DNA of 44,582 nt from assembly GCA_008636045.1 (NCBI GenBank), contig SNRW01000013.1, positions 1 to 44,582 on the forward strand, read 5' to 3'. A model generated the notes under the pieces. The model was not told where the DNA came from, did not search any database, and saw only the letters and a list, made by a program, of their open reading frames with translations. Shown piece by piece: positions 1 through 31,545 of this stretch. Position numbers and translations under genes: made by a program. How positions within the stretch are numbered: position 1 is the stretch's first letter; each line of letters opens with the position of its first letter. Source of the DNA: Streblomastix strix. Lineage: Eukaryota.

Positions 1-3000
1 TTATTATAAAGATAGATTCAATAAAATGATATAGTAAAATAATTTTAATTGTACGAATTAGAATAAGAAGAATAAAAAAAGAAGAAATAGAATGAAAAAT
101 AATAGTTTAATAATAATAATTAACTTTTTGAAGAGAAACATTTGAAAGAAAAAGAATAGAATAAATTATTTGATACTTAATCGCTTTCATTCATTCCTCA
201 AAAATAATAAATATTTTAGTCTCCATCTGGTTCATCATCTTAATAATAATACAGTTAGTAGAAAGAAAAAGAGTATAAATTAATTAATTAAACTAATATT
301 CCAAGCCCTTACTTAAAAAATAGCTAAGTAAAAATAAGTAATAATAATAATATATTCTCTTAAACACTTTATCTCTTACAAAAAATGCAAATATAAGCAT
401 AATTAATATAATTTAATATATATGAAACATAGATATATACAGTTAGAGTGAAAAAAAAGAAGAAGAAGTAAATAATTAACTTGAATATAAATGAACATAT
501 TACTGAAGAATTGATTTAATAAAATGATATGGAATATCAATATATGTAATAAATAAGATTTATTCAAAATAATAATAGATAGTCAAAAAGATATATCATT
601 CATAATGTTAATATGAATTTTAATGCTGATTTATTATTTGCATCATCATTATTATAATTTGCAATAATATAAGAACACTAATAATTATTACAATATAAAG
701 AAATCATGAATTAAGAAAAATAACAAAGAGAATTTATACTTCAGATGTATGATATGATTGAAACAGAGAATATGAAGATTGAACAAGACAAATTATAGAA
801 TAACTAAGAAGAAAGATAAGAAATAGGCAAAAGTACTAATTTTATGAGAGAAGATGATGATAATACTTCTGATAAATAATAGTTAGAAAATGCAAATATT
901 AATATTAATTATCTATTTGGTGATTAATTCACCTCTCCTGTCAACTCTCGTGTTGTTCAACCTCCTTCTTCCATTTATCTTCCTCTTCCTTCATTATCAG
1001 AATTTGATCCGTCAACGCTACCCCTCCCACAAACATATCCTTCTGTTTCTAATTATTTTAACTACGAATCTCCAGCTAAAAGATAAAAATATGCGTATGA
1101 ACCGTATTATCCTAGTTCTTAATTGCTTTCATCTGAAATTCTTCCTCCTCCATCTCCCCATTAATTATAGCTCATTTTATTACATTAATAATTTAACAAT
1201 ATTCTGAATAGCTTATAGGAAGATGATGAAAATAAAGATAGTCAAAGAAATATTCATGATAAATAGTAAGAAGAATAAAAGGATATTTCTTAAATTTACT
1301 AATAAGATTATATATGGATGAAATTAAATTAAGGAATTGAATTAATAAAAAAGATTATTTTGATTAACAAAATGAATGATGCTCCTTTTTATTATAAAAG
1401 TCATTCTCATTCCGCATCACATTCTCTTTCTTCTACTTCATAATAAATTAATTCTCTTTTGTTCCCTACTACACTTTTATCTTCTTTTTAACTATAAATA
1501 GATAACGGTATTAAAATAAATGTAGGAAATAGAGATATAATGTTAGTATTTAGTATTATGATTGAAGTAAAAAGAGTGATAAAAGAAATGGAGAAGATAA
1601 AAAGAGAGAAAGAGAATAGAAATAAAGAGAAAATAAAATAGAAGAGAGTTAATAATAAAGATAAATAAAGAAAAAAGAATGAAAAGAAGAAGATTAAGCC
1701 AGATTTTGATAAAGTTAGAGAAATTAAAAAAGATATTACGCACAATCCTCCTTCTCCAAAGTCTATTTCTTCTTATTAATAATCTATATTATCATCTTCT
1801 TTATCATCACTTCCTTTATCATTCCAACATCCATCTTCATCATCATCTTCATCCTAATAAACCTTATCTCCACCAAACCTTACACTTAATGTTCCTCTTC
1901 TATCAATACCTACTCTTCCCACACTTATTCACTCATAAACAATTTCAAATGCATCTTCTTCATCTTTATAATAATTACTTTCTAATTCACCTTCCATTTT
2001 CTTTCTTTCTAATTCGTAATCACATTTATCTCCAATTTCGCTTCTTCCATCCTATTCGTCTCTTTTAAATCCTATTCTTTCTCATTCTAATGATTAACAG
2101 TATCAATAACAATAGCAACTTCCAGACTCTCAGATTATCTTAAATATTGCAAAATAATAATAAACGAATATTAATAATTTTATTAATTTTATTAATCCAA
2201 ATTCTCTTATTAATTAATCTCAATTTCCATTAACTCCATTTTGGTTCATTCCGTAATTTATTAAATATATATAATCTTCTATTTTATATTTTAATATTAA
2301 TATAAGTGAAATTTAACTAAATGTATTCGGAGAATAGAAATTGTTTATAAACTAATAATATAATGAATATGATAGAGATTGTTTAGAAGACGATCTAATT
2401 GAAGTATAACAACAAGGAATTGCTTAATTTGTGGTTTAATCTGAGAATATTGAAGTAAATTTTGCTTTATGCGCATGCGGAGCTTAAGATGATGGTTGGA
2501 AGGAAATAAACTTTTAGAAGATGAAAAAGAATACTTTAAAGGAAATAGGAAAAGAGGAAGATAAAGAATAAAATGAAAAAGAAGAAATATAATTTTGGAA
2601 AGATATTGTTTATTTTGATAAAGAAGATATTTCCCTTCCATTTATTAGTACATCCAATGAGCTAGGCAAAAAATAGACCAATTAAGATTATTCTCCTTCA
2701 TATTCATCTACCACATTTTCTTCTCTCATTTCTTCCCCTTCTACTCACTCGCCAACATCTTTAATAATAGTTTAGAGTTAATCGTCACTTACTTTATCTT
2801 TATTTTATTATAATATTCATATTGAACAATATGAACCAATAATTGAATAATTTATTATAAATTTTTTTATTAAACCTTAGTAATAAATGAGTTAAAGGAT
2901 TGATGATGAAAGAGTAAAGAATTTATTAGACTTAAAGGTTGAATAAAATATGAAAAATGAACAAATGCAGAATATTTAGAAAGATAAAAACAAAGAAAGA

Positions 3001-3737
3001 GAGTAATAATAACTTGATTCAAATTATTATTTTTCATAATCAATATAAATTTTAAATAACACAAAAGGAAGATAATACCCAATTGATTCTAAATTTATTT
3101 TAAAGAAATTTAAAAAATTATATAAATCATAATCTTCATAATTATCTCAAAATTACTAATTTATTTATGATATTTTAATGCACAGGTTGCAAGAAGCTAG
3201 TATAATTACTTATATTCCTCCTTCTTTCTCTGTTTCTTTTAATTAATAAAATCAATCAAAATATTCACAGTAATCTATTAATCTTAACGTATCAGCATCA
3301 ATGATTGAGTCGTTGTATAATATAATTTAATTTTGGCTTTAAAGTGAAAATTGGATAAATATAATGAAAATTAAGAAAGAAAAGAAAGAGATAAGAGAAA
3401 TGTAAGGAGAAGGAGAATGGAATTTTGCAAAAGATATTAATTTAGAAGAAGAAGAAATAGAAGAAGAAGAAGAATAATAAAATAGCAAAATAGAATCACC
3501 TTAGCAATAAAAAATATTATAATAAATAAAGAATTCGTCACAATCATAATATATATTAAAAAATATTACTGGATCTACTATTAATTTGAGATTCATTGAT
3601 ACTGAATAAGATTAAATTTAATACTTATAAGACTATAATACTTTATCAACTCCACCTTCTTCTTCTTTTTCGTAATAAGAAATTTCTATACCTACTTATA
3701 CAGAATATAACATTCCCTCTTATTTATTATATAAGCA

Positions 3738-3816
<79 letters not shown>

Positions 3817-6800
3817 TAATAAAAGAGTTAAACATTATTAAAATAAGAAAGCGAACAATATATATTTGATGATGATGATTATTATTTCTACGGAAATGTT
3901 ATTGCAAAAATTAATAAATAAAAATTTGGAAGAAGAATACGGTAATTAAATAAAAAATAAATGTTATAAAGAATCTTATTAAATAATAAAAGAAATAACA
4001 AATTATTATCAATACAAATTGAAGGATATGAATAATTGCCTTTTATTGATATTTAATATATTGACTGTGCAACTTTTAATCTTATTCCAAAAAATAATAA
4101 TAAATTTAAAATATAATAATAATTAAGAATAAATTTGTAATTATAATAAGGATTTAAATACCTAACATTTAGCAGTAATATATGTATAAAAAATGATACT
4201 AATATTGCTCTTATTCCTTTCTTATATTGTTATGAAATAGACACAGAGAATATTAATTGTGATAAAGAATAAATTGGGGAAAATGATAATTAGAGTGTTA
4301 AAGAAATATAATTAGATAAATAAAATCCATATTCATCGATATCTTCTCCATATTCATCAATATCATCACAATTTTCATAGGTTTCATCACCTTATTCATC
4401 TCTTTCTTCATAATCATCCAAATAATCACCTAAATAATCATCCAAATAATCACCTAAATAATCATCTAAATAATCTTCTCATAAGACTTAGATTAAGAAT
4501 CATTCATTTTCATCTTCGAAAATATCTCCAATATCTTCATTATAAACATCTTAATAATAATAATAGGAATAGGAATAATAAATATAATTAAAGTAAATTC
4601 CTCTCTCTTCTTTTTCATTACCCTTTCTTTTACCTAATTCTTCTATATTTATTCCATTAATTCCTCATTTATATTCATTTTCATTTAAACCTACAAATGG
4701 AAATGATTAAGAAGGGTATTAAACAATAAAAGAATGGAAAGAAAGTAAGCAAATTATTTTAAATGATTAAATTTAAATAGATAGATTCGATTCTAAGGAA
4801 ATAAAAAGAAGAAATGAATATATAATATGTGAATAAGAAAAAATATTAACTTCATCATAGTAATCATCGCCGCAATCTCCTTTAGAAATGACATTCTATC
4901 TTTCCATTAATAATATAAATAATGATTAAATTTATTAATATATTGATAATATAAATGAAAATTTGAGTTAGAATAAGAAAAATATAGGAAAATATGATAA
5001 TAATTAATAGTCAAAGTAAAGAATGGCAAAAAATAATATATTTGGAAATTAATAATTCACTTTTTCTCATTTTGAAGACCCAACAAACAATATTAGCAAT
5101 AACACTACTTCATCATTTACCCTATTCACTCTTTCACCTCCTCTTTCTCTATATAATGCACTTCCTCTTACTATAGCTGTTGAACTATTCATTCCAATTG
5201 GACAGACATTAATCGAATTAAAACAAATTGATAAATAATATTCAAATGAAAGAGAATATTAGAAAATTTAGAAAGAGATAAGTAAAAATCAATAATTAGA
5301 AAGATATTATAGAGGATAAATGATGAATGTATCTAGATAAAAAGATGCAGATTGTTGCCCTCCTTAACATACTGATAATATACTTGCACAATAATTACAT
5401 TAATTTGCCTTGTAGGATGAAAGAGAAGTTGAAGGAGATGAAATATTTTTAATTAATTAACAATAATAAATTCATTTTCAAGTAGGAAGAAGTTATCCTT
5501 TATTAACAATGTTTGGAAATGGGTTAAAGAAAAGAATGATTAGGAATAGCAATAATAATAAGCAAATTTTATAAATACAATCAAAAAATAATCCATTAGA
5601 TTCTTCACTTGCACATTATTACTAAAAATCATAAGATACACTTCATTCAATAATTATATTCATTTAACCAGGAAATAATTAGTATTTATATCATTTTCCG
5701 ATGAATTCAAATATTGCTATTAGAACATGTTATGCAAAATTAAGATATGTGAAAAAATAGAAATTATAATTAAATTAAAATTAATAAATTAATAATGAAA
5801 AAAAGATTGAAGATGAATTTAATAATTAATATTAAAGATCCTTAACTGCCGAATGTGGAATCCATTGGTCAAAGTTATATCTTTTACATGAATAATTATA
5901 ATAAATATAATTCTAATAACAATAAGAAATTAAGAAGAATAAGTAATAAATAAAAGAGAATGATAAAGGAAAGAAATAATATAATTATAAATTAAATAAT
6001 AATTAATATTAATCATTTATTCCTTCATCAAGGTTATTATTTATTGAATCAACAGCTATTGTAATGGAAATTCAGTAAGATTATTTATTATAAAATAAGA
6101 AAAAGAACATATTTAATTCTTCTTCATCATCGTAATAGCAGCAAACATTTAACATTTTATTCTATTCACCTTATTGGATTATAAATTAAACAGGAATAGA
6201 ATTAATATATTAAGAATAGCAAAGTGTAAAATAAATATAGGAATAATAATTAATTAACTAAATCTTAGAGCAAAATAAAATTAATTAATAAATTAATTTA
6301 AATAATATATCAACAGCCTCTGTGCCTTCGGATATAGTTATTCATCTCCCATATAATATTATTGACGAGGATGATTAATTGGATAAAAAATCAAAAAATG
6401 AAAGAATAATTAGAGATGAAGAACAAAATGAATAGCAATTGAATATTTTTCGTTAATACCCTCTTCCTTTCACATTTCATACATCTCAAATTCTGTATTA
6501 ATCTTAAGATAATGATAATGATAATAAATCTATAATTTAGTCTTCCTCTCATCCTCCTTCTCCTTCTTAATAATAAACTTCAAATTCACAACAATAATCT
6601 CTTTTATCCATTAATCCTCTACTCTGTCTACGCGTTGCACACCCTCGAATAGAAGGAAAAACTGAAGGAATTGATATTAATTCTTTATTTAATCCAAAAT
6701 CTCTAATAATGATAGATGAATAATAAGCTCATGAAATTTGTATTGTTTCTGAAAATGCTTTATTTCCATTTTCAAAAACTAAAACAATAGTAATATCTCA

Positions 6801-9800
6801 CAGATTTTAGTTTATTAATAAAAACGAACAATGGGATATTTGTGTGAGAGAATGGAAAGGAAAAGAGATGGAGAAAGAAGTTAAATTCAATTAGATTGAT
6901 AATAATGATTTTATTGTGGTGTAATGTAGAAATAAAGGATAAAAATAAGATTAATCAATTGGATGGACATGGAAAGATAAAGATAGCATTGGATTTAAAA
7001 TGAAATTGATATAAATTGCTGTTGTTAGAAGAAAGAATACAAAGAAAATTAAAAATAAAAGAGCAGGAATTAATATTAGAAATATAAATCCGAATAAATT
7101 GAAGTGGTCAGGAGCTATTCATATAGATAATGTTGAAGATTCAACAATTCTTTTATCATCATTTAGAAATAATATTAATAATATTAATTAGAATAAATAC
7201 AATAAAAACATAAACATTACAAACAATGAAATTAAACTTCCTTCTGAATCTCTTTATTCATTTTCATCAATCTCTTCTGTTCATTATTAAAAGAATATTT
7301 AATATTAATAATAAATATAATAATAATAAATGAATAAAAATTTATTTTCTCTTAATTCTAATTATTTGCAAAAAATTGATAACAATAACAACGATAAAGA
7401 TGAGTATGACTATAATTACAATGATATAGAAAATAATAATTTATCTTTAGTTCATGGTTTATTAATTCATTTTCACCCTTATGAAGATGAAGTAACAAAA
7501 GCAATAAAAATTGAGATGCTTGTTGAATAATGTAAAGAAATTTCAGAAGAAATAGCTGAAAACGACTTATTGAAAAAATAAAATTAATAAAAAGACAATG
7601 ACGAAGATGATGAAGATTTTGATGATAATAGTTCTTCATCTTCTTTAAATTCTTTATATCAAAACTTAGAATAATCTAAAGAGTAAAATGAATAATAGAT
7701 AGAAAGTGATTTTTCATCTTCATCTTCTCCTATTTTTAATTCTTCTTCCTCATCAACAACATTGCAATTTGAATTAGAAAAATAGGATATAAGAAAGGAG
7801 AAAAAGTTAAATAAGAAAAAAATTGAAAAACAAATTAATAATAATTAATTAAAAAATAGCTTTTCAACAAATTTAATATAAAATATATCAATAACCCCAC
7901 CATTCGTAATAAGAAATAAAACTCATTATTGTTTTTCAATATAATAAGAGGGTTTAGAACTTGAATAAATATTTATTTCACCTCACTCATCAATTCCGTT
8001 TGCTCAATTTGACTAATTGTTGGTTCCAAAGATGATTATAATAATTCATCCTTCACTTACTGGGTTTATTAATCGGAATATTTTATTGAATTTAAATAAG
8101 AATAAAGATAAAGAAAACGATTTTGATTCGATTTCAATAATTTCAAAATAATAATTTGATAAGGATGACATTTAATCATAGAATTCAACAGAAAAAGATT
8201 CTGTTTCATTGCTTAGCAATAGTAAAAGAAGCAATCATTCATAATCTTACACCCACTCTCATCATTCGACATCAGAGTATATCCATGAATCAGTTGGAGC
8301 ATCAATAACAATTAATATACTTGAAATGAAAACTTATGATCCAATTTCATTTGTCGATAATTAAGGAAATAAATAGCAATTTACTATTGTTTGTGGAACA
8401 GATGGTCCTGCTAGAGTAATTGATATTATAGCATTTGAATAATAAAATGATAATATTTAATAATAATTAGAAAATATTATGTAATAAGAAATGATTCAAT
8501 TTAATGAATTAGATAATGAATAAACTGAAAACATAGAAATTTACTAAAGAAGAAAGAGAATAATTGATGAGAGATTAAATAAAGCAAAAATAGGAGTTGA
8601 ATTTATTTTTCTTATTCAATAAATATGTATTTCATTTGTATCAACAAAAGGAGTAACGAGAAAGATAATTAGACTTAATAATAATTAATAATAATCTATA
8701 TAGCAAAGAAAAATCAATTAGTCATTTCGTCCATTTGAATTTTGCTTATTATCTTTTTCAGATATCAATTTACTATTTAGGAGAGATGGATAAATAGATT
8801 AGTTAGAAACATATATTAATAACATTTAAGTAGACAATCATATTCCTAATTCTTTATTTAATGTTATTTTAAGTACTGTAAATAGTAATGAGTAATATAA
8901 TGAAAGAAAGAAGGCGCTTGAATTGCAACTGCTCATTCTTCCAACATTAAATAATAGAACACCCAATAAAACATAAAATAATTCAATTTTATTATTTATT
9001 AATAATGGATATTTTTCTTTGGGTGAATTTGATATAAGAATGGAAGAAGAATTTATCAGAAGATTTATAAGATATATTGATGAATTGAAAATTATTAACT
9101 TATTCTAAGCAATATAAAAATCAATCAGTGAAGCATAATAAAATATTAATAATTCTAATTCTAACTCTAATATATTAGAAAGAAAAAGATATTAAACAGT
9201 AAGAAGATAGTAGGAGTATGATATCAGCAATGATAAAAATAAATAAATTAAAGAATAAGATAATGAAAAGTAAGACAATTTTTATTCACATCATTTTTTT
9301 GATTAAGAAACAAATATTAATAAGAATTCTATTTAATTGTTTAATTTAAATCGTGTAATTCCATAATTAAATAGAGATGATGAGATTGATAAGAATAATT
9401 ATTCTGATTTTGAAATGAAAGGATTATTTGAAACTAACTTGAATAACATTAATATAAAACAATATGAAGATAATGAAACTAGATTGGCAAAATTTGATGA
9501 ATATCAAAGATTGAGGAGAAAAAAACCTATTAAAAAATATGGACACTTTATTTTTATTGAAGAATTTGAGATTAGGCCAACGTCATTTAACATAGTGTTT
9601 AAGAAAGCAACTACTAAAGATTAAGAAAATTAAGATGATGAATAGTAAGAACAAGAACAATAAGGATGGATTACTTGGGGAAGAGATGCGATTTTATGGG
9701 GAGTCAGAAGCCCAATAAGTTTGGCAATGTCTATGGTCGGGGCAGCCGTAGCGAATATTGACACAAAAATTGGCCTTCATGAATTAAAGATGAAATTTGT

Positions 9801-11005
9801 GTATGAATAACTTGAGGAGATTCTTGAACGATTAAGAGTTCACTATTTTTCAGCTTTTAAAAGAAACATTTATAATGTATGAAATTTTATAATTAATTAA
9901 TAATAAATTTCTTTATTTATTATCATAGCTTATATCTGGAGTAGAGATAATAGGTAATCCGATTGGTCTAGTTTAAAGTTTAGGAAGTGGTGTTTATGAT
10001 CTATTTTCAGAAACAGCCAAGGGATTCGAAGGAGGACTTTATGGATTTACAGGTGGCTTATTGAATGGAGGATAAAAAATGATAAATAAAACCATATATT
10101 CTGTGAGTGATACAATTACGCGCATTTCATCATCGATTTCAAAAGGTATTTCGGTTGTTACTTTTGATAATGATGAAAGACTTGAAATAGATCAACATGG
10201 AAACAAAAGACTGGTTTCTGAAAGGAGAGTAGATACAAGAGGTCAAGAACCTCAAAATCCTGCTGAAGGTTTGGGAAAGGGAATTCATGCATTCGGAATG
10301 GATGTTTGGAAAGGAGTGAGTGGAGTTGTATAGAAACCAATAGAAGGACTTGAGCGATAAGGAGTATCTGGATTAGTTAAAGGAATTGGATAAGGGTTGC
10401 TGGGATTAGCTTTATAACCAATCAATGGAACACTAAAATTAGCAACAAAAACATTTGAAGGAGTAAGAAATATGACAGGGGAAAGGAGAGATGTAGTGAG
10501 TTGGATTAGATAAATTCGATACATTGGTTCATCTCATGTTATTTAGCCATTCAATGCGTTGCATGCTGAAGGATTTACATGGACTTTAAGTGCAACAGAC
10601 TTACTTCAAGGAGAGGACATACGAGGTCACAGTCTTGTTAGGCGCACAGATCTGCGTGTAATTGTTGTAACCAGCTTGCGCATTATGTATCTTGGCGAAG
10701 TATGGGGATCGGGGGGACAGTTTGAATTGCGCTGGGAATTTCCTATATCTGCAGTACGAAATGTAGAAATTGAAGGCTTAGATATTGCATTAATCATCAA
10801 TGTACATTCGATCGAAAGATAAACTAATGGTTAAAAAGATCAGATCGGACGCTATGATGGTATAAGCAATCCATAATTTAATACTGATCTATTAACTCAT
10901 AATTTCAGAGATCAGTAGCGAGTATTGATCCGCGTTGATGATGCTTCAGTATCAAGACGGACAAAGCTTATGCTGGAAAAGGTGATAAGCTCAAAATCTT
11001 TTTGA
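1..11005 (+). CDS. VPS13: VPS13-family bulk lipid-transfer protein, 5'-partial; exons <1..9876 and 9929..11005 (about 3,650 aa in window; TAA/TAG=Gln)
   Basis: Frame 1 stays open wherever spot-checked if TAA/TAG are read as Gln. VAB/SHR-BD-type repeat motifs are present (FYSPYWIINQTGIELIY ~6160, TIVISHRFQFINK ~6785, KWSGAIHIDNV ~7100, PPFVIRNKT ~7897). The spliced C-terminus reads HYFSAFKRNIYN|LISGVEIIGNPIGLVQSLGSGVYDLFSETAKG...GLGKGIHAFGMDVWKGVSGVVQKPIEG...GLVKGIGQGLLGLALQPING, typical of the VPS13 C-terminal/ATG2_C glycine-rich helices, followed by a PH-like segment (VIVVTSLRIMYL...LRWEFPISAV). Ends at TGA 11003-11005. Confidence 0.9.
3742..3816 (+). repeat. (AAT)25 coding microsatellite = poly-Asn tract in VPS13
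   Basis: Perfect AAT array in phase with VPS13 frame 1. Confidence 0.9.
9877..9928 (+). other. 52-nt spliceosomal intron in VPS13
   Basis: GTATGA...TCATAG boundaries and very AT-rich interior. Removing it joins frame 1 to frame 2 and restores the conserved VPS13 motif IYN-LISGVEIIGNP. Confidence 0.85.
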
Positions 11006-12342: not shown

Positions 12343-12348
12343 TTTGTC
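12343..12348 (+). repeat. Target-site duplication TTTGTC (left; right copy 31823-31828)
   Basis: Left flank ...GAATCTTGT-TTTGTC and right flank TTTGTC-ATGATTATAC... rejoin to match the paralogous empty site GAATCTTAT-TTTGTC-ATGATTATAC at 39307-39331. Confidence 0.92.
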
Positions 12349-12625
12349 AATAATATAGCTAGGACGTCAATAGGGTATTTCATTTTTTTCCAGTGTTTTG
12401 CTCATTTTTCATTGAATTTCTGTGTTATTTGCTAAAGATGTTACAATTTTGAGCCTTTGAATTTTGAGCTAGTCTGAAATTTTTGGCCTTCAGTTTACGA
12501 TAACGGATTTTGAGCGAGCATTTTCATCGCAAACGAATTTTTAGCGTTTCGCATTTTTGATAGGGTAATTCATAAAAAAGCGATGTTTTGATAATTTTGA
12601 TGTGAATTTGTTCGTTAATATTATC
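12349..12625 (+). repeat. Left terminal inverted repeat (277 bp)
   Basis: Reverse complement of 31546-31822, with about 8 substitutions counted by eye. Begins AATAATATAGCTAGGACGTC. Confidence 0.95.
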
Positions 12626-12869
12626 GGTGCAGCTCAAAATTTAGCTCTTAAATCTGTTTGAAGCCGAAATTTTCGAGATTTAGTTTCATTTTAGTATTTG
12701 CGTGTTTTAGAGCTGTAATGTAAGATAATTTTAATGTAATGTATATAAAATGCATGAAAATAATATTGTCATCCATTATTTGCACTATCAAATAATACTA
12801 GCATATTCATACTTGATCCGATTTTCTGAGCCAAAATAAAAATAACTTTTCAAATCCTACATTAATTAC

Positions 12870-12980
12870 CGATCTTGATCTGATCTGATCATGATCGGAT
12901 CTACAACCTCCCCAAATTTATTTTTTAAAATTTTTTTATGTCCAGAATTCGATCTCGATCTCGATCTCGATCTTGATCCG
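12870..12980. repeat. Subterminal clusters of GATC-core short repeats
   Basis: GATCTTGATCTGATCTGATCATGATCGGATC (~12871-12901) and TCGATCTCGATCTCGATCTCGATCTTGATCC (~12949-12979). Confidence 0.75.
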
Positions 12981-13008
12981 GCGGTTTAAAACTAATTTTA
13001 GAAAAATT

Positions 13009-13081
13009 TGCCACTTATCGGTGTCGAACCTAAAACATTAAAATTTACGATGCAAACTCATGTCCACAGAGCTATTAAAGC
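13009..13081 (-). ncRNA. tRNA-like RNA polymerase III cassette (pseudo-tRNA / candidate viral small RNA)
   Basis: Minus strand reads GCTTTAA TA GCTC TGTGGACAT GAGT T TGCAT CGTAAAT TTTAA TGTT TTAGG TTCGACA CCGAT AAGTGGC A, 73 nt with tRNA spacing. It has an A-box-like TAGCTCTGTGG, a B box GGTTCGACACC and a paired D-stem, followed by a TTTTT terminator. Acceptor, anticodon and T stems pair poorly. Confidence 0.5.
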
Positions 13082-13114
13082 TAACACAAAAATAATATTT
13101 ATATATATTTATAA

Positions 13115-13525
13115 TCATTTTTGACAGAAAATTGATTTACTATTTAAAAATTCTGGTCTTCGTTTTTTTATTGAATTCCAATTATCAAATTCTTCCTAAG
13201 TCATATCATCATTTTTGTCTTTTGACATCAAATAATAAAATTCCCAATAATCTTACCAATATTATTAAAATTCTGATCTTTTTTCGTAAGGAACAAGCAT
13301 TTTTGGTTCAAGAAGATCAATATATATATTATATTGTATTGATTTTGGTAATTGCTTTATAAATTACGTTTATTATCTCATGTATGAATCTCTTTTCCTC
13401 TTAATTTCTTCTAAATCTACATAAGAATCATATTTAAGATGATTTTCAATTTCTGCAACTATGGAAATTTTATTGCTTGTCGACGATGTTGAAGTTGAAG
13501 TCATTTCTTTTTGGTTGTCTTTCAT
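13115..13525 (-). CDS. Viral hypothetical protein, 136 aa
   Basis: ATG-to-TGA ORF under TAR=Gln (MKDNQKEMTSTSTSSTSNKISIVAEIENHLKYD...QQYWQDYWEFYYLMSK...), divergent from pPolB. Confidence 0.65.
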
Positions 13526-13717
13526 AGAAAATTAAAATGTTTAATTAAATAAATAAGTTTAATTAAATAAATTAAATAATTTAATAAAAAATAAATTAAA
13601 TAATTTAATAATTAATTATTATTTTATTAAATTATTAAATTATATCTTAGTTAAAAATCTTTTTCGAGATCATTTTAATTTTAATTAAACCCACTCATAA
13701 TTTCAAAAATTGTTTCG

Positions 13718-16700
13718 ATGACACGAAATTATACTCGATAATAAGTGAATGAAATTGGTAGATTATTTGGACATAATTATTCAAGAGTTAATTTATAAGC
13801 TGGTTAATTCTTAATATAAGGCTTGTTTTAAGAGTATGGCGTTGATGAACCATATGATTACTCCCCTGAATTGATTTAGAAAATTATTGATGCAGTAAAA
13901 TTAAAGCAACAATAAGAAAAATAAAGACAGTAAAAATTACTTGATGATTTTTATGAATGGTCTAATTAAGTAACTTTAGAATAGTTAGGATTGAAATAAC
14001 CATCAAAAGAGATTCCTTAGGAGATTCCTTAGGAAAAAACTTAGGAAAAAGAAAAAGAGATTCCTTAGAAAAAGCATTAGAGAAAAACCTCATTAGAATT
14101 AAGAATTGAAGAACATAATAAATAAATTGAAGATTTACCTGATGAATTTTTTGAAAATTTTACCAAGCATGGCGTAAGTTAGATGGAAAAAGATTTACCA
14201 AAAGAATATGATAATCTATAAGTTGTTGTTAAATAACCAATTGCTAAATAAAAAGTAAAAATAAATGAATAACCATAAAAATAAAAAACTAAGATTTAAA
14301 TTTAATATCCAGTTTATAGATCTGATTTATCACCATAATTTGTTAATGAATAATTGAGAAGACTAGGTAAATAAACCGATGATCTCTCAAATTAAGCAGC
14401 TTTAGAATTGTTATCGTTATAATTATAAACATTAAACTACGATGATTCTAAATTATCAACTGAAGCTAGAATTAGAGCGTTTTTAGATAACTCTATTCCG
14501 GATTAACATTAAGAACAAGATTTGAATTTCTTATAACCATTAACATCAGAAGCAATTTCAGATATTCGTGATAGAATTGATAATCCAAAAAATAATAGTG
14601 AAATTAGAATATAAAAGGAATAACTTAATGAAAAATACAAGAAGATTCACTAAGAATTTAATGATATTCTTGAAGAATAACTGCAAACTTTTAAGATGGC
14701 TGATGAAGAAATAATAGCAGAAACATATAATTTTAATGATAAAGAACTAAAATAAATAGAAATTGAAGGCTTAATTGAAGAATAAGATAAATCACTTTTA
14801 TTAACTGAGCCAGTTAATTTATTGTAATTTTTATAATGTTTGAGATAAGCAAGAAGATAACATCCACAGCAATTAAAAGAAATTAAAGGAAAAATTGATT
14901 AAGACGGAAATGAACCTACTCATACATATATAAACAATTAAATAACTTCATTGGATGATATTCATAGATTTATTAAAGAAGTTTTTGAAAAAGAAAAAGA
15001 AAATCATTTTAAAATTGCTGTTGATTTCGGATATATACAAGAATATTAAGATGTAACTCCTGAAGGAGAATAAATATTAGAATATGACTCAAAATTTCCA
15101 AGAAAAAATTTAACACCATTGAATATTAAATCGCTTATTACAAGTTAAGAAGATATGGATACTTACGATAAATACATAGAAACAATAATAATCAATAATT
15201 AAGAACGAACTGAAGAATCTACAAAACATCATTTCATAGCAGTATTTTCAATGATTGTTATAGCTTATCGTATTCCATTTGCAGGTAAAGCTATTCCTGA
15301 GTTATAGAAATTTATTAAACGACGTGAAGTACATTTCGTTGAATCTCCATATCCAAATAATTGTTTCTTTGAAGCTTTATCATATTTATCAATGCCTGAT
15401 TCGAAAACTAATCGTTATAGATCTTAAAATAGAGTTGCTGAAGGAATTAGATTAATAATTTAATATTACAGCTTATCTGGCAATTCTGCTAAATGTAGAG
15501 ATGTTTAAAATTTTCTTGCTGATTTAAAGGATTTGATTTAGCTGCTGATGGTAAGAATATTGCAAAAAGAATGAATATAAATATCTGTGTCTATGCGTTT
15601 AAAGAAGATGAATAAGGTAACTCATTCTACTTAGATCATGTAATAAAATCATTTAATTATATCTTAGATGAAAATGAAACTCAAGTATAAGAGCAAGATC
15701 CACAAAATTTTAATATATTACTTCTTTAATTCTAAAATCAAGCTCATATATTATATGTTTCTGATCCAGAAGCATTAACCGGTTATAGATATTGTCCAAT
15801 ATGTAAGCTTCATGGTATTAAAATAAAAGATAAGAACTGTAATTCTGCGAGAGATTTTGAAAGACATGTTGAGAAATGTAAGTTAAATAAAGGCAAGCAA
15901 GTTCTACTATCATCATCTCAAATTCCATTTGCTCCACATATTTACGGTAATTAAACTTATATGCATCTATTAGCTAATGAAATGATTGATAAATTTAAAC
16001 CTACTCAATATTATATCACATATGATTTTGAGACTGTTGAGCGAAATATTAATAAATACTTTGGTAAAAAGAAGGATGAAAAGAATGATGCAGGTTAATA
16101 AATAAGTAATTCATTCTAAAACTCAATACTTGAACCATTATCAGTTGCAACTACAATTAAATCTAAATCTGGAATTAGAACAATCTATTACGATTTACGT
16201 TAAGGCCCAAGTTTTATAGAAAAATGGTTAGAAGAAGTATTTAAAGCTGCTGAATAAATTAAATAAGACAATAGTTATAATGATCCAGAAGTTCCTTATG
16301 AAATTCCTGTTCCAGTTGTTGGTTTTAATTCTGCACACTTTGATATGATATTTGTATTACCATATCTTACAAATAAAGATTGGCACATAGTTTAAGGTGG
16401 ATATCTTGGTGATTTCTCACATATTAAGCGAGTAGAAGTTAGACATAAAATAAGCAATGTAAAAATATAATTCTTAGATATTGGTATGTTTATGACTAAA
16501 ATGTCATTAAAAGAAGCTGCTGAATCATTCGGTGATGGAAATAAACAAGATTTGAAAGGAATATTTCAATATACAGAATTCAACTACGATAATTTTAATG
16601 AAGTGCTATCAAAATCCGAACCATTTGCTTAAACTGATTTCCTAAACTTACTCAAAGAATAAACATTATCTGATAAAGATTACTAAATTTATCTCGAAGA

Positions 16701-18885
16701 TAGCAAAAATTTTAAAACAAGATGGGAATATCTGAAGTATTATAATGAATAAGATACAAAAATTATGATAAAACCTATTGATAAACTAATTTAAATGAAT
16801 TTTAATAATGGTATTGATATGTTTAACTATGTTTCTATGGCAAGTTGTGCAAATGCTATCAAATATAAGATTGCTTGTGATGATTTCGATTTAAATGCTC
16901 GTTATGAAAATAAATCTGACACTTCTCTTATAAATTATTAGACATTCAATTTAACTGAATAATATTGGGGTATTAAAGTATAAAATTATAAAAAATAAGA
17001 TATTAAAGCTGGTAGAGATGTTTCAAATAACGTGAATTAGTCAGATTATGTGTATTTCAAATAATAACTTGAAAAAGGCTCTTGTTGGTATTGTTAAGCA
17101 AGATTTACTAAAACTAATCTTCCAACACTTGATAGAATCGATAATAAACTTGGTCATTCAAAAGATAACGTAAGATTAGCATGTTAATATTGTAATGTTG
17201 CAAGAGCTAATAGAGATGATAAAATATTTCGATTAAAAATATAACTTAAAAGATATTATTAAGCAAAACAATTGCCTATGCCATTAACAGATGAAGATAC
17301 ATATCATGAATTAAGAAACGGAATTACAGGTGGATTAGCTAATGCTTTTCATAGATATAATATTTCAGGAACAACTCATATAAATAAATTGAAATTATCG
17401 GAAAATAAAGTTGTTAGTTATGATTTAGAACATATTATGACACATATTACAGGTTTTGATTTCAATTCATTGTATCCATCTGTTTACAGTGGACTTTAAC
17501 ATGAATTTATTAGATATACTGGTCATTAAATGTATATGCCTGGCTATGAATTACTTAGAATTAATTGTGTAACTGAAAAATAAAAACAATTAGGATTAAA
17601 TATTATTGATAATTAATTAAGATTCTCTTTACAAAAATCTGACGTAGATAAAGTAACAATGTTCGTAGCATCTGTTAAAGGTCAAATCGACGAAGAATAT
17701 CTTAATGATTTTATTAATTGTCCACCAATAATTAGGAAATATAAATATAAATGCTTGGAATCTGTGATTGGTAAACTGATGTATGAGCATTAATTGAAAA
17801 ATAATTTACCAAAAGATAGAGATGAATGCAAATTAACTGTATTATTATCAACAATGGGTGAATACATGGATTTCTATTCATATTACTTATGGTTTCTTAT
17901 TGATGATTGTCATTTCATAATTGATGATATCAAAAACATTAAAACTTTCTCAAAACATTTAGGATTTGCACCATTTGTTAAACATTTCAGTAAATAAAGG
18001 CTCACAGCAAAATTATCTAAGAATGCTGGATTAGATTAATATAGTAAAATAATTATGAACTCATCTTATGGTTCTGATGGTATGAATTAAGAACATTTTA
18101 CAGATGTTAAGATATGCGATAGAGATGAAACATTTAGAGCTCATTTATATGGCAAATTTAAATCGGATCGTAAGTTAGGCGATAATAATTATGCTGTGGA
18201 ATATGAAAAAGAAAAATTTAGTTGTAAAACTTGCATTTAAGTAGCATTTGCTGTATTAGATTGTTCTAAGTATTGGTTTATGAGTATTTATTACAATTTC
18301 CTTTGCAAATGTATTGATTAATAACGTTTTCATGTTGTTTACTGTGATACAGATTCAATGATGTGTGCTGTATCAGGTGATCCAAATTAAGATTATCGTT
18401 AAGGATTCTCTGCAATAATTAATGAATAAAAAGTTTATGATGAAAATTTCTACAAATTCTTCCCAGATCCTAATAAAGACATATATGATGAAAAGAAATT
18501 ACTTGGAGTTGCATATGAACATTGTGGAACAACTATGATTGCATTAGCACCTAAGAATTATTGGTTAGATTAACCATTTGATAAGAAAGAACCTGAAGTA
18601 ATTAAATTGAAAGGATTAAATTTAAAACTCAATCCACAAATTAATAAGGAAGCATACATATAAAATTTCAAAGAAGGAACTGTAGTATAAGGTAAAAATA
18701 AATCATTAAGATAACATATAGAGCATAACTAGTAAAATGAAATACTTAGTCGAATGAGTAGAGTTGAAACATTTAAGAATGGTATTACAGGAACTCATAC
18801 AAAAATGATATGCTTAGCAAATGGATGTTGTTGTCCGTATGTTTACTAATTATCAGCAGATAACTATAGTGTTGAAAATCTATGA
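13718..18885 (+). CDS. polB: Protein-primed family B DNA polymerase with long N-terminal (terminal-protein/vOTU-like) region, Zn finger and inserted HNH-like domain; one -1 frameshift at ~15523-15529
   Basis: Frame 2 runs 13718-15574 (…PNNCFFEALSY…). Frame 1 runs from ~15523 to TGA 18883-18885 and contains FKGFDL…ININICVY…AHILYV, CPIC…H…C, Exo I YDFET, Exo II GFNSAHFD, Exo III YNEQD, CWYC…TLDRIDNKLGHSKDNVRLACQYCN, GITGG, Pol A DFNSLYPS, Pol B KIIMNSSYG, Pol C YCDTDS, APKNY and KLKG. Confidence 0.93.
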
Positions 18886-18930
18886 TAATAGTAAATAATC
18901 ATTTAATTTTATTTTTGATTTAATTCAAAC

Positions 18931-20349
18931 ATGTCTTTCAATTAGGATGATTTTGGTGTTCCACGTAAAGGTGGTCATTTCTTAAGAAAACCTTAAAAAC
19001 GAACAGAAGAAGAAATTCTATAAGATATTTTGAGTAGATATTCTGATGATACTGATGAAAATCAAAGATAAAATGAAGTTGGTAAATAAAGATTTATTGA
19101 AGGTATGGCAGATCTAATGAATCTAGGAATTAAAGAAATACTTGATAAAAATAAATCATTAAATTTTGAAGATTTCATTGAAAAATTAAATATACATGAA
19201 TCGTATGAAGAATTACCAGTTATGAGTAAATTTGCAAATTTTATCAAAATCGGAGGTAAATCATTAATTAATTGGTTTAATGAATATGTTGATATATTAG
19301 TTGCTAGAGGATAAAGAAGAAAACATATTGGAGAAGATATTAATGAAGGTAGAAGATAATTAAGATAAATTGTGGAATTTCCATTCAAATCAAAGTTAAA
19401 ATTATTTGAAAGAGCAAATTAAATTAAATTGCGACCATAAATTGATATCGATGAAAGAATAAATGTTCCTGATTATCAAATCAAATAATTATGCAAGAAA
19501 TTTGGAAGACCTTACTTTTCACAATACACAGGTTCATGGGAAATTGATTTAGTATTCTCGATGAATCCATTAATAAAACACGTTAGTTAAATATATTTAT
19601 TCTGCATTAACATTAATACTAAATATCTTGTTGTATATCCTATACGTGAAAAAACAGCAGATGAAATTCTCAATGCATTAATAATTTTAACAAGAAATTT
19701 CAAAGTAAATTATATCAGAGGTGATGGTGAAAGAGGATTTACAGCAGCAAAGTTAATAGAATTTTATAGGAGTAATTAGAATTCTTTAATTCACAGTTTC
19801 TTCATTAGTAATGCCGCTGCACCATTTACAAATCATAATGGAGTAGTTGATTCAGTTATAAGAACTATAAGAAATGCATTCGGATTAGATGAAAGAGCAT
19901 TTGCAAACAACAATTTAATGCAATAGATGGTTGAAATTTATAATAAAACTCCTCATAGTGCATTCAATAACTACTTTACTCCAAAGTAAGTCAATTAAGA
20001 TGAAGATCTTGAAGAAATATTCATAAGAAAACATAATAAATAATTATAAGAATAAAAGAAAATTTAAGTGCTTGAAGGATTGCATAATTTTTAGCCTGGA
20101 AATATTTTAATGATTCATGTTGATTATTCTCGTACATCACATTCATTTGCAAAATAAAGAAGAAATTTTAATGAATTAGCAGAATTTGTTAGTTATGTTC
20201 ATGGAAATGTTTGTTGTAACCTATTAAGGCCATTTAAAGAATTACGTAGGATTGAGATTCAAATATATTACTGTAAATATGTTTGCAAAAATATTGAAGA
20301 ATTATTTACACCTAAATTTAAAGATTATCGATAAGTATTCTTAATTTGA
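18931..20349 (+). CDS. Retroviral-like (rve) integrase, 472 aa
   Basis: GSWEIDLVF…YLFCININTKYLVVYPIREKTADEI…YIRGDGERGF…NHNGVVDSVIRTIR…MVEIYNKTPHSA…TP is the pattern of Polinton-type integrase cores. Consistent with the 6-bp TSD. Confidence 0.88.
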
Positions 20350-20417
20350 AAATTTTCATTTAATAATTTTTTATTTATTTTTTAATTTATTAATTTTTAT
20401 TTATTATCAAATTACGT

Positions 20418-20804
20418 ATGCAAAAAGAAGAAATTTAAGAATTAATTATTTAAACTTTGGATGAATTATAGCCTCAATTATTTAAAAAAGATGATGATTA
20501 AGTCAGTAAAGTTAGCACTCGTGGAAGAAAACGTAAATATTAATCTTAAGAAGAAGCAAAAGAAAGTTAAAAATAATAGAGTAAAATAAATGCTGCAAAA
20601 GCATCATTAAATAAAAAATTCTTTAAAACTCATGCAACAGATTCATAATAATAATTAATTAAGAGACTTCAAAAAATAATATTAAATAATGACGTTTTGA
20701 TATAAATACATGATATTGTTGATTAATACGATGAAAATATAATTAAATTAAAGAATGTTATTGCTTAAAGCTAAGAAATTTCATAAGATGAAGAATAAAA
20801 ATGA
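20418..20804 (+). CDS. Viral hypothetical basic/coiled-coil protein, 128 aa, possible DNA-binding
   Basis: ATG-to-TGA ORF containing TRGRKRKYQSQEEAKESQK (AT-hook/NLS-like basic motif followed by a helix). Confidence 0.7.
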
Positions 20805-20861
20805 AGTTAAAACTTTTTCTTATCAGTACTCATTGCATTCGCGCTCTAAAGAGTATATTTT

Positions 20862-22151
20862 TCAATCGTCATCAGTTTCATCAGTTTAACTTCCACTTCC
20901 ACCTTTCTTAGTTACCTTTTAATCTCCAAATATTTCTAATGCTGCTTCTTATTCATTTAATACTTTACTATCAATTTTTACTCTTTCTCCCGGTCGTTCT
21001 AGTTCTTCCATATCTCTTTACATAGCTTGCTAATGAGTAAGTATATTAATAGCTTATTCATATGAATATGTTGTTTATCCAAAATTGACTTCGAATGTTA
21101 ATTCATTTCTTTTCGTTCTTGCCCATTATACTTCAGCTGCAATTAAATCATATAGATCTCCTAATTCTGATAGTGGCTTACCTGAATATAATTAGTTAAA
21201 TACATTTATTGCAAGCTTATTTATTGCATTATATTTTTTCCTTGTATCTGGAGTACGATACAATTTGAAATAATCTGTATCCCTAAAAGCTGCTTTAGAT
21301 TAATCATTAGCATTCATAGCAGCAAAATATCCAATAAATTTCTTCTTCCAAATATATGGTGCACATTTTAAGTAAGTCATCTGTTATCTTAATCGTGTTT
21401 ATTGATCTGCTTATTTATTTATTACATGACCCAAACTCTTAAGCACAATTTATACAGCTTTATTGAATAGTTATTTACCAATTGCTGCAGGAATTAACGG
21501 TCTAATTGATTCATCATACCAAGTACCATAGTTATGTTCTCTTCTATTAGCTTTTTTAGGATATGCACCATAATATTAGTTCAATAAGAATCTTTATTTA
21601 GGTTCAACAGCACGATAACCATCAATAGAGTAAAATCCTGAAGGATTAGTTACAATAACATTATTAGGAGTATTAATATCTCTATCAAGATCTTCTGATT
21701 TAACTTTCCTTCCTTTTTCTTACAAACCTCTATCAGTAATCCAATTTGCAGCACTTTCTACATTAACTAATGCTTTTACTCTTTTAATATCTTTTGCTAA
21801 TTTGCCAACTAAAGTTAATAAAGCTGGTCCAGCTTAATCAGCTAATACTCTAGCTTATGCTTATCGTTATACAGCAAATCCACCTTATCTTCTCATAATT
21901 TCGTCAAAACTGACATTAGTTCTTGGTCTTTAAGGTTTACGAGCGTCTCTAATAATTCCTATATATCTTCCTTAATTCTTTATTACTGCTGGCAGATATT
22001 AATCATCTTTATATTATTCCTAATATGCTTTACGTCTACGAATTTCTTAAATGAGATCACTTGTTGGAATTTATGATGAGCTTGATGATGAGCTTGATGA
22101 TGAAGGTTATTATAAGAAGGCTCTTGAAGATATTAGTTCAGATCCATACAT
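20862..22151 (-). CDS. Viral hypothetical protein, ~429 aa (alternative in-frame ATG at 22181); possible core protein
   Basis: Long open frame under TAR=Gln (MYGSELISSRAFLQQPSSSSSSSSSQ…EDLDRDINTPNNVIVTNPSGFYSIDGYR…) ending at TGA; Arg/Lys-rich N-terminal half. Confidence 0.75.
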
Positions 22152-22225
22152 TGATTCTTTACGTAAAAGATAAAACTTCATATGAGTTCATTAATTGCAA
22201 ATGAAATGTTCAATTTAATTTTAGA

Positions 22226-22882
22226 ATGAACCAAATAATTAGAAATATGGATGAAAATCACGAGTTAAAGCAATCAGTTTAATCCGCATGGACGAACACT
22301 AAATAAATTAATGTGAGTTAAGTTTTAAGATCGTCGTCACCAAGTTAAGCATCTTTATAAACATTAGTTTCACCAAGAGCTATATAAACTATAGTTGAAG
22401 TTAAATCACCATTCGAAAAAGATCCTCAACCTATTTAAATTTCATCTCGAAGAAGATCATCAATATTTGAAGAAACAATAACTCCAGATCCAACAGTTTG
22501 TAAATGGTTATTAGATATCATAAGTGAAGATGAACATATGATTAAAGAATCAGCTCATTTCATTTTATCATAGCCTTAATTGACTCGTGTTGTTGCATAT
22601 ACTTATGAAGTTCCTGAAAGTTAAGTTGAAATACTTGTTGAAGATGAAACTTGTTGTAGCAAATTCTGTAATGACGGAACTGTAACAGTAACTGATATTG
22701 CAATTTCAAATGTAAATATCTTAACGTTAGACACAGATAAAGCAAATTTATTGAGAGATTCTTATAAAATATGTCTGTAAAAAGTTAGAAAAATATCATC
22801 AATATTAGATTTAGGAGAGATTTCATCAAGAATTATGCGAGCAGTATCATCAGGATTGATGTAAGTTTTATCTAAGGTATGA
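22226..22882 (+). CDS. Viral hypothetical protein, 218 aa
   Basis: ATG-to-TGA ORF with a Ser/Pro-rich N-terminal half and an ETCCSKFC motif. Confidence 0.7.
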
Positions 22883-22931
22883 TCATAATAATAGATAATA
22901 AATTTATTTTTGTTGAAAACACCGAATTAAA

Positions 22932-25829
22932 ATGCTTGACGGGGACTTACATATGTTAGATGTTGTCTTGAAACATGATGAGACATTATTTGGATCGAAT
23001 CGTACAAATACTATTGGAATTGTGGAATAAATTACAAATATCAATAATTAAATCAATATGATTAATAACGCACCTGCACCTGATGTATATACAAGAACTG
23101 AAGCAATTGAGTTATTTGATAACAAAGCCGACAAAACTGATCTTGATGAATATTACAGTAAATCTGAAACTTATGCTAAAGTTGAAGTCTATAATAAAAC
23201 AGAAGCTGATGAATTTCTTGATGAAAAAGCTAATGTTGGCACTTCATACTCTAAATCAGAAGATGATTCATTGCTATTATTGAAAGCTGACAAAACTTAG
23301 TTAATAGATTCATATTCAAAATCAGAAGATGATGCATTGCTATTACTGAAAGCTGACAAAACTGAGTTAATTGATTCATACTCTAAATCAGAAGATGATG
23401 CATTGCTATTATTGAAAGCTGACAAAACTGATTTTGATGAATATTACACAGCTGGATAGGTTGATGAAATGCTTGATGAAAAAGCTGACAAAACGTAATT
23501 GATTGATTCATATTCAAAATCTGAAGATGATGCATTATTATTATTGAAAGCAGATAAAACTCAATTGATAGATTCATACTCTAAATCGGAGGATGATGCA
23601 TTACTAAATAATAAAGCTGATATTGGAGTTTCTTATACAAAAGGTGAAGATGATGCATTATTATTATTAAAAGCTGATAAAACTTAATTGATTGATTCAT
23701 ACACAAAAACAGAAACAGATACCAAATTAGCTTTGAAAGCAGATTAATCAACAACTTACACAAAATCTGAAGATGATGCGCTATTATTAGCAAAAGCTGA
23801 CAAAACAGACTTAGAAAACTTTGTAGATCTGTCTTCAGCTCAAACAATAACAGGACAAAAATAATTTGGAATAGTTAGTGTATCTAGCATATCAAAACTT
23901 ACTAAAAATGATGCATCAATTCTTCTCGCTGGTGGTGGTGATATGCTTGTAAGTAGTTTAGTTACATAACCATAATTATAAGAAGTCAGAGATATTGCAT
24001 CAGGAAGATCAAAAGGTCATGTATTCGATACATTATAAGATTTAAATGATTGGATGGCTATTCCTGATAATGTTGCAACTCTTGTTATTGGAGATAATTT
24101 ATATATAATTGATTCATAAGTTACAGATTATTGGTGGGATGGAACTTAACTTAGAGAATTAGAAACTTAACTGCCAGATTTAACTAATGTTGTAACAACA
24201 CTTGGTGAAGCAACTGGAAGTGGAAATGCAATAACTGATCTATAAATTGATGGAAATATATTGACTCCAGCTAAAAATAAAAATTTCATTGATTTGGAAT
24301 ACAATCAGACGATAACTGGCTAAAAAACATTCACAACAACTATTCATTCTGTTGGTATTACTTATTTAGATTACGATAATTCTAATGTAATTTTAGCTGG
24401 TGGTGGAGTTAGAGCAATTGCTGATATTTAAGGTGCTTCATACACAAAGGCATAAGATGATGCGTTACTATTACTTAAAGCTGACAAAACATAACTGATA
24501 GATTCATACAGCAAAACAGAAACAGATACTAAATTAGGTTTGAAAGCAGATTAATCAACAACATATACAAAATCAGAAGATGATGCGTTATTGTTATTGA
24601 AAGCTGATAAAACTTAACTAATAGATTCATACAGCAAAACTGAAACAGATAACTTATTGAATGATAAAGCAAATCAATCAACAACTTACACGAAATCAGA
24701 AGATGATGCATTGTTATTGTTGAAAGCTGATAAAACATAAATAATAGATTCATATACAAAATCGTAAGATGATGCGTTATTGTTATTGAAAGCTGATAAG
24801 ACTCAATTAATCGATTCATACACTAAAACTGAAACAAATAATCTCTTAAATAATAAAGCAAATCAATCAACAACATACACCAAAACAGAAACCGATAACT
24901 TAATAGCATAGATTGATGTTGCAGATGTTGATTTGAGCAGCTATTACACGAAAACTAAAACTGATGAATTATTAGGTGAGAATGCATATACAACTGATCT
25001 AGAAAATTATGTTACATTAGGCACTTAATAGGTAATAACTGCAAATAAAACTTTTCAGAATCCATGTAGATTCACAAGTTCAATTGATGGAACGGGAACA
25101 ATTACTGGATCATCATTTGTCAAATCAGGTGCTGATGATAGCGTTGTATTACTTGGAGCAGGAGGTACTAAGCCAATATCTGAATTTGGTGGAAGCGTTG
25201 ATGATTCGAATTATGTGAAGAAAACGGGATAAGAGCTTTAATTAATTCATGGGGTATTACGAAGAGATGATGATGAGGTATCAATGTTAGAGTATGATGA
25301 AGATTATTTGACAAGATTAGAAGTTGACAGAAAACTAACAAATTATGTTAATAAAACAACAACGCAAACAATTGCAGGATCAAAGACTTTTTCTAGTAAT
25401 GTTACTGCTTCGGGATTTGCAAAAACAAGTAAAGATGATACGTCTGTTCTATTAGCAGGTGGAGGTGACATGTTGATATCAGCATTTGGAGGGGCTGAAG
25501 ATATTACTTCGACAGTTTCTAGTTATGGAGCTAATATGGTATTTACAAACACTACATTTATCAAAATTGGGAAATTGAGACTATTCAGAGGCACAGTTCA
25601 TCCATATAATAATATTTCTGCATCTTCATCGGATAGTGTAGTGTCATTAAGTTTTTTAAATCATCCTGCTTCAGATACTCCATTAATTGTTGCAAGAGAT
25701 ACAACTAATTCAATAAAAATGTATGTATCAGCAAGCAATTCAACAATATACGTTAATACTACCACTTCTTCATGGGCTAATACACTCGAAATAACAATAT
25801 ATGGTTGGTGGATTGCGCCATAAGGTTGA
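22932..25829 (+). CDS. Phage-tail-fibre-like repeat protein (putative virion fibre), 965 aa
   Basis: Two arrays of 19/22-aa repeats (SYSKSEDDALLLLKADKTQLID; 57/66-bp period). Four QT/VIxxxKx/TF units, each followed by a (I/V)LLAGGG-like motif. A C-terminal beta-rich tip ends ITIYGWWIAPQG. Confidence 0.75.
23244..23810 (+). repeat. Coding tandem repeat array 1 of the fibre gene (66/57-bp units)
   Basis: TCATACTCTAAATCAGAAGATGAT… recurs at 23244, 23310, 23376 and onward. A second array lies at ~24438-24900. Confidence 0.85.
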
Positions 25830-25883
25830 TATCTCTGATGCAATGAAAACGTTAATTAAATATTTATTTTTGTTTATGATCAA

Positions 25884-27515: not shown

Positions 27516-27632
27516 GCTCATTGTATTCGTACTCTACTAACTATGTTAGCGCTCTAAAGAGTAAAGAGATTACAGTAATTATTCATGAAGTTAATATTTT
27601 TGTTAAACCGAAACAAGAATACAATTAAAAAG

Positions 27633-27944
27633 ATGGCCGTAGGTTTGTTTCATAAAATAAAACAATTAGCATCAAAAGTTGGCAAAGGATTATAATGGGT
27701 AAATGAAAAAGTTGTAAAGCCGGTAGTTCTTCCAGCAATGAAGTAATTTAGTGGTATAATTCCTGGTGGAGGATTAATTAGAAAAGGAATAGAAACAGGT
27801 TCATCTGCACTTGATGCATTCTATGGATAAGGTTCATAATAAGACTTCAAAGAAAAATATAATGATTTATTAGATGATCCATACTTAAGAAATTTACCGA
27901 TTGATTAACTAAGTAGATTAATAAAACTTAGAGGCAATTAATGA
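27633..27944 (+). CDS. Small protein (103 aa) with N-terminal cationic amphipathic helix; candidate membrane-penetration/internal virion protein
   Basis: MAVGLFHKIKQLASKVGKGLQWVNEKVVKPVVLPAMKQFSGIIPGGGLIRKG…, located directly upstream of the putative MCP. Confidence 0.7.
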
Positions 27945-31530: not shown

Positions 31531-31545
31531 TCTTATTTAATACGA

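Follow-up and report, generated by a model that had tools for sequence, protein, structure and literature searches.

A tRNA-derived cassette without a cloverleaf near one end of a Polinton-like virus of Streblomastix strix: a putative TFIIIC site

Near the left end of a Polinton-like virus in the genome of Streblomastix strix, an oxymonad flagellate of the termite gut, we found a 73-nt minus-strand stretch (positions 13009–13081 of the window, i.e. the whole 44,582-nt stretch of DNA analysed) that, judged by similarity above chance, is derived from a tRNA, has lost the cloverleaf and carries a consensus B box. By analogy with sites known in other organisms, the B box would make this cassette a DNA site for TFIIIC, with the role of a boundary or of a Pol II roadblock; we give this reading, including the putative binding, a probability of roughly 0.45. 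An insulator or TFIIIC-binding site was one of two functions offered by an earlier reading (hereafter the sequence-only reading), and this putative function is likely the best fit. Many protist genomes are full of endogenous Polinton-like viruses, whose non-coding control elements are poorly known.

A tRNA-derived cassette with broken stems

The cassette was numbered 1–73 from window position 13081 down to 13009, beginning with G1 and ending with A73, and the A- and B-box consensus and tRNA numbering applied to it are those that we take to be canonical. The minus-strand tRNA spacing described by the sequence-only reading held over all 73 nt. The A-box-like element that it described is present at tRNA spacing (index 8–18; 13064–13074, minus strand), but the invariant A14 is missing: a T replaces it here, sister copies have A, and the count of strict A plus B boxes is 0 for this copy because A14 fails. 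The B box GGTTCGACACC (index 52–62; 13020–13030, minus strand) agrees with the consensus. Two letters past A73, a run of five T (T5; 13002–13006, minus strand) resembles a Pol III terminator; T5 also stands directly downstream of both host tRNA-Thr genes, and is present in 3% of local 10-nt windows. Two hallmarks of type 2 Pol III genes, the B box and the oligo-T terminator, were thus found as had been described.

The D-stem, reported earlier as paired, is indeed the sole paired stem (4/4; three Watson–Crick pairs and one G-U). The seven positions of the acceptor stem give two Watson–Crick pairs, two G-U pairs and three mismatches, and the anticodon stem pairs at 2/5 positions in the register of the sequence-only reading and at best at 4/5 with an 8-nt loop (11 registers tried). 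The loss of these two stems had been recognised; to it must be added the T-stem, which is also broken (3/5). With its acceptor, anticodon and T stems unpaired, the cassette is not a functional tRNA gene. Scoring with tRNA models, proposed earlier as a check, gave no tRNA call: ARAGORN, Rfam at E ≤ 10 on 12960–13130 and a host-tRNA covariance model all left the cassette uncalled, as expected because the stems are broken, and ARAGORN matched it only at threshold 80, as one of 8 calls.

Similarity to tRNA was compared with dinucleotide shuffles of the 19,474-nt element. The cassette is the element's best match to the host tRNA-Thr (41/74 letters), a value reached in 1 of 300 shuffles, and its combined box score was equalled in 5 of 1000. 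Loose A and B boxes at tRNA spacing arose in 19 of 300 shuffles. A chance match in AT-rich DNA could appeal to the strict B box alone (12/300 shuffles), to a stem-inclusive score of 23.5 (reached in 138/400 shuffles, with one site in coding DNA scoring higher) and to the missing covariance-model matches, but it has to contend with the tRNA-Thr identity, with the box score, and with sister alleles (A14, T20, G45, C48) that shift towards the tRNA consensus, as we take it to be, at positions where this copy departs from it and which the sequence-only reading had not seen. A chance match is largely refuted already, and we consider it very improbable; the tRNA ancestry supposed from the start is thus supported. 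The cassette is likely a former tRNA gene that a forerunner of this family of Polinton-like viruses took from its host. Assignment to a parent tRNA was ruled out, since the anticodon arm is 1–2 nt short and the would-be anticodon varies among sisters. A search of viral sequences with the cassette motif returned one match, unrelated and no tRNA, and a search of prokaryote genomes returned none.

The Polinton-like virus and its surroundings

In the AT-rich window, long ORFs appear under translation table 6 (TAA/TAG = Gln) and none under table 1. The element that holds the cassette spans 12349–31822 (19,474 nt) and is bounded by 277-nt TIRs, the left at 12349–12625 on the forward strand and its inverted partner at 31546–31822 on the reverse strand, with eight mismatches between them. 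A 6-bp TSD lies at 12343–12348 (forward strand), its second copy at 31823–31828, and an empty paralogous site was found near 39315; with such TIRs and TSD, the insertion is young. The gene for protein-primed PolB (pPolB; 13718–18885, forward strand, two frames) matched PF03175 at E 6.8e-9 and has 65 relatives. Long TIRs with a 6-bp TSD and a protein-primed PolB are marks of Polintons/Mavericks, and they support the location within a Polinton-like virus that had been proposed for the cassette.

Three further genes were assigned as probable. A probable rve-type integrase (18931–20349, forward strand) rests on a weak rve_3 match (E 0.045, under cut-off), with which the 6-bp TSD is compatible; a probable P-loop packaging ATPase (30754–31530, reverse strand) matched ATPase_2 at E 1e-4, also under cut-off; and a probable double jelly-roll (DJR) major capsid protein is encoded in two frames at 28016–29729 (forward strand; 265 relatives, low-confidence model). 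The best 120 of these 265 relatives are all named S. strix, with identity up to 96%, and for a full-length relative with a low-confidence model (pLDDT 37) DJR capsids ranked first, at E of at least 0.008 and none at E ≤ 0.001. The integrase, ATPase and capsid matches are all under cut-offs, yet they point in the same, probably Polinton/Maverick-like, direction. Sequences of solved structures gave no match, and no Pfam match to an adenovirus-type protease was found among the 15 element ORFs scanned. The pPolB gene, the capsid gene and a host VPS13-like gene (385–11005) each occupy two frames; assembly indels are as likely as decay for the split viral genes, because the host gene is split too. 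At 22932–25829 a viral ORF of 965 aa contains numerous tandem repeats of 22 aa and matches nothing in Pfam; its product may be a fibre or other structural protein.

In viral_contigs, no relative was found with pPolB, a pPolB alignment or a capsid alignment as query, and a metagenome scan gave eight distant pPolB loci at 34–45% identity. None of the eight holds a tRNA or a similar cassette, and none is confirmed to reach the corresponding end of its element. In a distant pPolB element on metagenome contig L004 (1–11493), ORFs that by eye resemble transposases separate the polymerase from an ORF of 543 aa.

The DNA beside the element contains a host duplication (31822–36162 and 39315–43655; 7.5-kb spacing, 90% identity), both units of which carry an identical tRNA-Thr(TGT) and the second of which retains the empty insertion site. 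A host inverted repeat of about 760 nt (32108–32865 and 37759–38513; 69% identity) matches 39601–40346 too and probably belongs to an old repeat family. We rejected the idea that the virus targets tRNA genes, its insertion being 1.46 kb away from tRNA-Thr.

On its 5′ side the cassette follows ORF-A (136 aa; 13115–13525, minus strand), a co-directional frame whose stop codon lies 33 nt upstream. ORF-A is a real gene, because 10 of 13 listed changes fall at third codon positions (p = 0.002); no family was found for it, nor any relatives among proteins of 74–238 aa. ORF-A ends in TGA, and visual inspection ruled out a SECIS element, whose helix does not pair above the putative quartet; tRNA-like 3′ processing of its mRNA is unlikely, as the acceptor and T stems are broken. 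Between the cassette and the left TIR lies a block of short tandem units (12861–13001, no strand assigned) with 11 GATC in 141 nt, i.e. 78 per kb versus 2.5 in the element body; it is found at the left end only, and its units are candidate protein-binding repeats for replication or packaging.

Sister copies and the pattern of change

The region is present in three DNA runs (X1, X2 and X3) of three studies, the first of which is possibly the source of the window and hence not independent of it. No RNA run turned up for 12349–15500, a result without bearing on expression. X1 contains the window's own haplotype as a 546-nt contig with zero differences, so that the cassette is no assembly error. 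X2 and X3 gave one contig each across the cassette, and a narrow comparison over 12985–13105 gave five contigs, all from X1, to which changes were allotted by hand from depth sums; the absence of X2 and X3 there may be a false negative. Two of these five overlap by 30 letters at loose ends and are therefore likely one haplotype, leaving four X1 sisters. For X2 and X3, the differences considered are 40 of 229 rows.

A14 and G45 occur in all four X1 sister haplotypes and in X2 and X3, and C48 in all but one. Because these letters are kept there, the sister family is closer to tRNA than this copy is. The A box is perfect in one X1 sister, fails at one position in each of the other three, and is perfect in X2 and X3 among the differences listed. 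A check by hand found that none of the listed sister changes restores pairing in the acceptor, T or anticodon stem; given this and the short anticodon arm, the cloverleaf was likely dead before the copies diverged. The loss of the fold, first claimed for a single copy, thus extends to every copy seen (four X1 sisters, X2 and X3). As the TIRs differ at 8/277 positions, most of the sister divergence is older than this insertion.

The X1 sister of highest depth has an apparent hairpin-like insertion of about 27 nt, flanked by TA, in the D-arm (13068–13070, between index 13 and 14). Deduced from two loose ends, it ends 3′ in a near-consensus A box at an about unchanged distance from the B box (by eye), and it could represent part of a diverged cassette or else a duplication of local sequence. 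One X1 haplotype shares two interior letters with this copy and others with the sisters, and is mosaic-like.

Of the two boxes whose conservation across copies had been proposed as a check, the B box showed no listed change and the A box varied. With box limits fixed after the variants were seen, the positions listed as variable in the X1 contigs were 0/11 in the B box, 5/11 in the A box and 14/33 in the between-box region (3′ D-loop, anticodon arm and variable loop; 13031–13063, minus strand), where indels occur as well. The B box differed from the between-box region (Fisher p = 0.009) and from the A box (p = 0.035), and the A box fared no better than the interior (p = 1.0). Uniform decay of the cassette is therefore rejected on the listed data, in which differences less than about 30 nt from piece ends are hidden and four, in three X1 contigs, are unplaced; if all four lay in the B box they would erase the contrast, but shared contig ends suggest otherwise.

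In the one sister that spans the whole region, the B box lies more than 30 nt from the piece ends and is unchanged, while 12/33 interior positions differ, against about 10/88 in the flanks (p = 0.003). Set against the same flanks, the 0/11 of the B box is not significant (p = 0.6), nor does it differ from the third positions of ORF-A (9/128; p = 1.0). Changes common to the three runs are more frequent in the interior (7/33) than at ORF-A third positions (9/128; p = 0.02) or in subterminal DNA (12/197; p = 0.01). The non-box sequence 3′ of the B box is nearly invariant too, and no change is listed in the T5 run of the sisters. If the interior changes at the neutral rate, the B box is constrained; if instead the flanks are the neutral part, the interior is unusually fast. 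Uniform decay agrees with neither case. The contrast may reflect a fast interior instead of a conserved box. Transcription-associated mutagenesis as the source of a fast interior was unsupported, the inner 5′ flank not being divergent.

A putative TFIIIC site, its rivals and known systems

According to the reading that we prefer, the tRNA-derived stretch would have been kept as DNA after loss of the fold. Its B box would bind host TFIIIC, and the bound factor would separate the last viral gene from the element's left end, as a boundary or as a roadblock to Pol II. Judged from yeast geometry, TFIIIC would act alone, with no stable TFIIIB/Pol III complex, and RNA made there by Pol III, if any, would be incidental, short and unstructured, with its end at T5. 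Pol II roadblocks are described at tRNA genes, where in yeast a TFIIIB roadblock halts Pol II about 65 nt short of the tRNA and a TFIIIC block lies 17–19 nt upstream of box A (passages of PMC5052057). Scaled to the cassette, the TFIIIB stop falls within ORF-A and the TFIIIC stop about 20 nt past the ORF-A stop codon; this geometry and the eroded A box would therefore favour a TFIIIC-only site, by extension from other organisms. As precedents, yeasts have TFIIIC sites that consist of a B box only and play boundary roles, and C. elegans has ETC sites that resemble tRNA pseudogenes (both in passages of PMC6950938). Against a TFIIIC site stands the S. pombe tDNA barrier, which, as described in part of PMC2040200, requires Pol III plus TFIIIC. 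Three findings also count against it: the B box is no significantly better conserved than the flanks, the near-invariant non-box 3′ part is not required by a pure B-box model, and a strict B box stands at only one end of the element. If a borrowed TFIIIC site is what the cassette represents, it would suggest a means of terminating the element's last transcript or of insulating the element from host chromatin, and scans with ARAGORN or Rfam would overlook a class of viral Pol III elements.

The cassette might instead be a neutral relic, a captured tRNA long dead that hitch-hikes subterminally, with recombination among virus lineages and small numbers producing the patchy divergence; it would then record merely an old tRNA capture. 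We hold this to be possible, if on the unlikely side. It agrees with the B box changing not significantly less than its flanks, with four haplotypes, including this one, that each break one A-box consensus position, with the mosaic-like haplotype and the apparent D-arm insertion, and with ascertainment, since the site was noticed for its intact boxes. It is harder to square with the rejection of uniform decay, with an interior that varies between several sister pairs and not along one branch alone, and with the near-consensus A box in which the probable insertion ends.

The other function offered by the sequence-only reading, an analogue of adenoviral VA RNA, was not borne out, although the tRNA ancestry, viral location, lost fold and unchanged B box and T5 of that interpretation stood. 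A functional Pol III small RNA of 75–80 nt, a trans-acting decoy that occupies RNA-binding or RNAi proteins of the host, would account for the A box, B box and T5 at gene spacing, for 5′ and 3′ ends that show almost no listed change even at non-box letters, and for the fast interior, which could reflect diversifying selection; viral Pol III RNAs with tRNA-like promoters (TMERs, EBERs, VA1) are known (part of PMC8223928). Yet the would-be transcript does not fold stably (z +0.5 at both 73 and 80 nt; longer spans, +0.95 and +0.17; host tRNA control, −1.9), no terminal stem, central domain or apical stem of the VA RNA kind was found, and the interior is free to vary, indels included. Erosion has reached the A box, the last codons of ORF-A would lie under a TFIIIB footprint, and PKR, the main target of VA RNA, is a vertebrate protein. 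Moreover, active tRNA genes stand out by divergence of their inner 5′ flank (part of PMC6130373), and no such divergence was seen here, 13082–13101 having 0 changes common to the three runs. We therefore regard such an RNA as improbable, and its extension to oxymonad Polinton-like viruses at large, which would express, for use as a trans-acting decoy against host RNA defence, a Pol III RNA of tRNA origin that is fixed at its ends and rapidly diversifying inside, as slightly more doubtful still. If true, the decoy would be a protist counterpart of VA RNA in the Polinton lineage, overlooked by tRNA scanners through its lost fold.

That the cassette is the head of a tRNA-derived SINE inserted in the virus, and the GATC repeats the tail of that SINE, would suit a head followed by short tandem repeats but not a T5 run immediately after the head, nor the X1 contigs, of which 5/5 run on into element-like flanks or one another and 0/5, at 80% or more, are dispersed copies with unrelated flanks; with no second copy in the window either, we hold it highly unlikely.

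Among known systems, adenovirus VA RNA resembles the cassette in its type 2-like internal promoter boxes with oligo-T and in belonging to a virus of the Polinton–adenovirus lineage. VA RNA is about 160 nt long, and the cassette, with about half that length, differs also in its clear tRNA register and protist host. Unlike VA RNAI as described in part of PMC2275154, it lacks a paired terminal stem, a central domain, an apical stem and the GGGU/ACCC pair, both motifs being absent from the 73 nt; it does not belong to the VA RNA family. The TMERs of gammaherpesvirus 68 likewise combine a DNA virus with a tRNA-like Pol III promoter; they retain tRNA-like structure and add miRNA hairpins (part of PMC8223928), whereas here the fold is lost, the terminator immediate and no prominent downstream hairpin present.

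Virophages and Polinton-like viruses carry folded tRNA genes (parts of PMC6905037 and PMC12220804); such viruses thus acquire tRNA genes, a plausible origin for the cassette, but theirs are found folded by ARAGORN or Rfam, whereas the cassette is invisible to both and cannot decode. Endogenous Polinton-like viruses of S. strix have been described as a Metamonada group (part of PMC10120064), with which this element shares TAA/TAG = Gln, pPolB, TIRs and S. strix-named capsid relatives; the word 'tRNA' is absent from the main text of that paper. In the mostly non-subscription literature, supplements excluded, we found no Polinton described as carrying a tRNA promoter whose fold is dead, a result that the tRNA tables in PMC12220804 and PMC6905037 or the supplementary files of PMC10120064 might alter. 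That literature gave no confirmation of tRNA genes in Tlr elements.

ETC sites and tDNA barriers resemble the cassette in a kept B box, subject to the unplaced differences, a weak A box and no tRNA fold. The CeRep3 ETC sites of C. elegans share its tRNA-pseudogene origin (part of PMC6950938), and tDNA roadblocks share the co-directional Pol II gene just upstream (part of PMC5052057). Unlike ETC sites, the cassette lies in a virus or transposon, is single and not clustered, has kept T5 and is a putative site read from the sequence alone.
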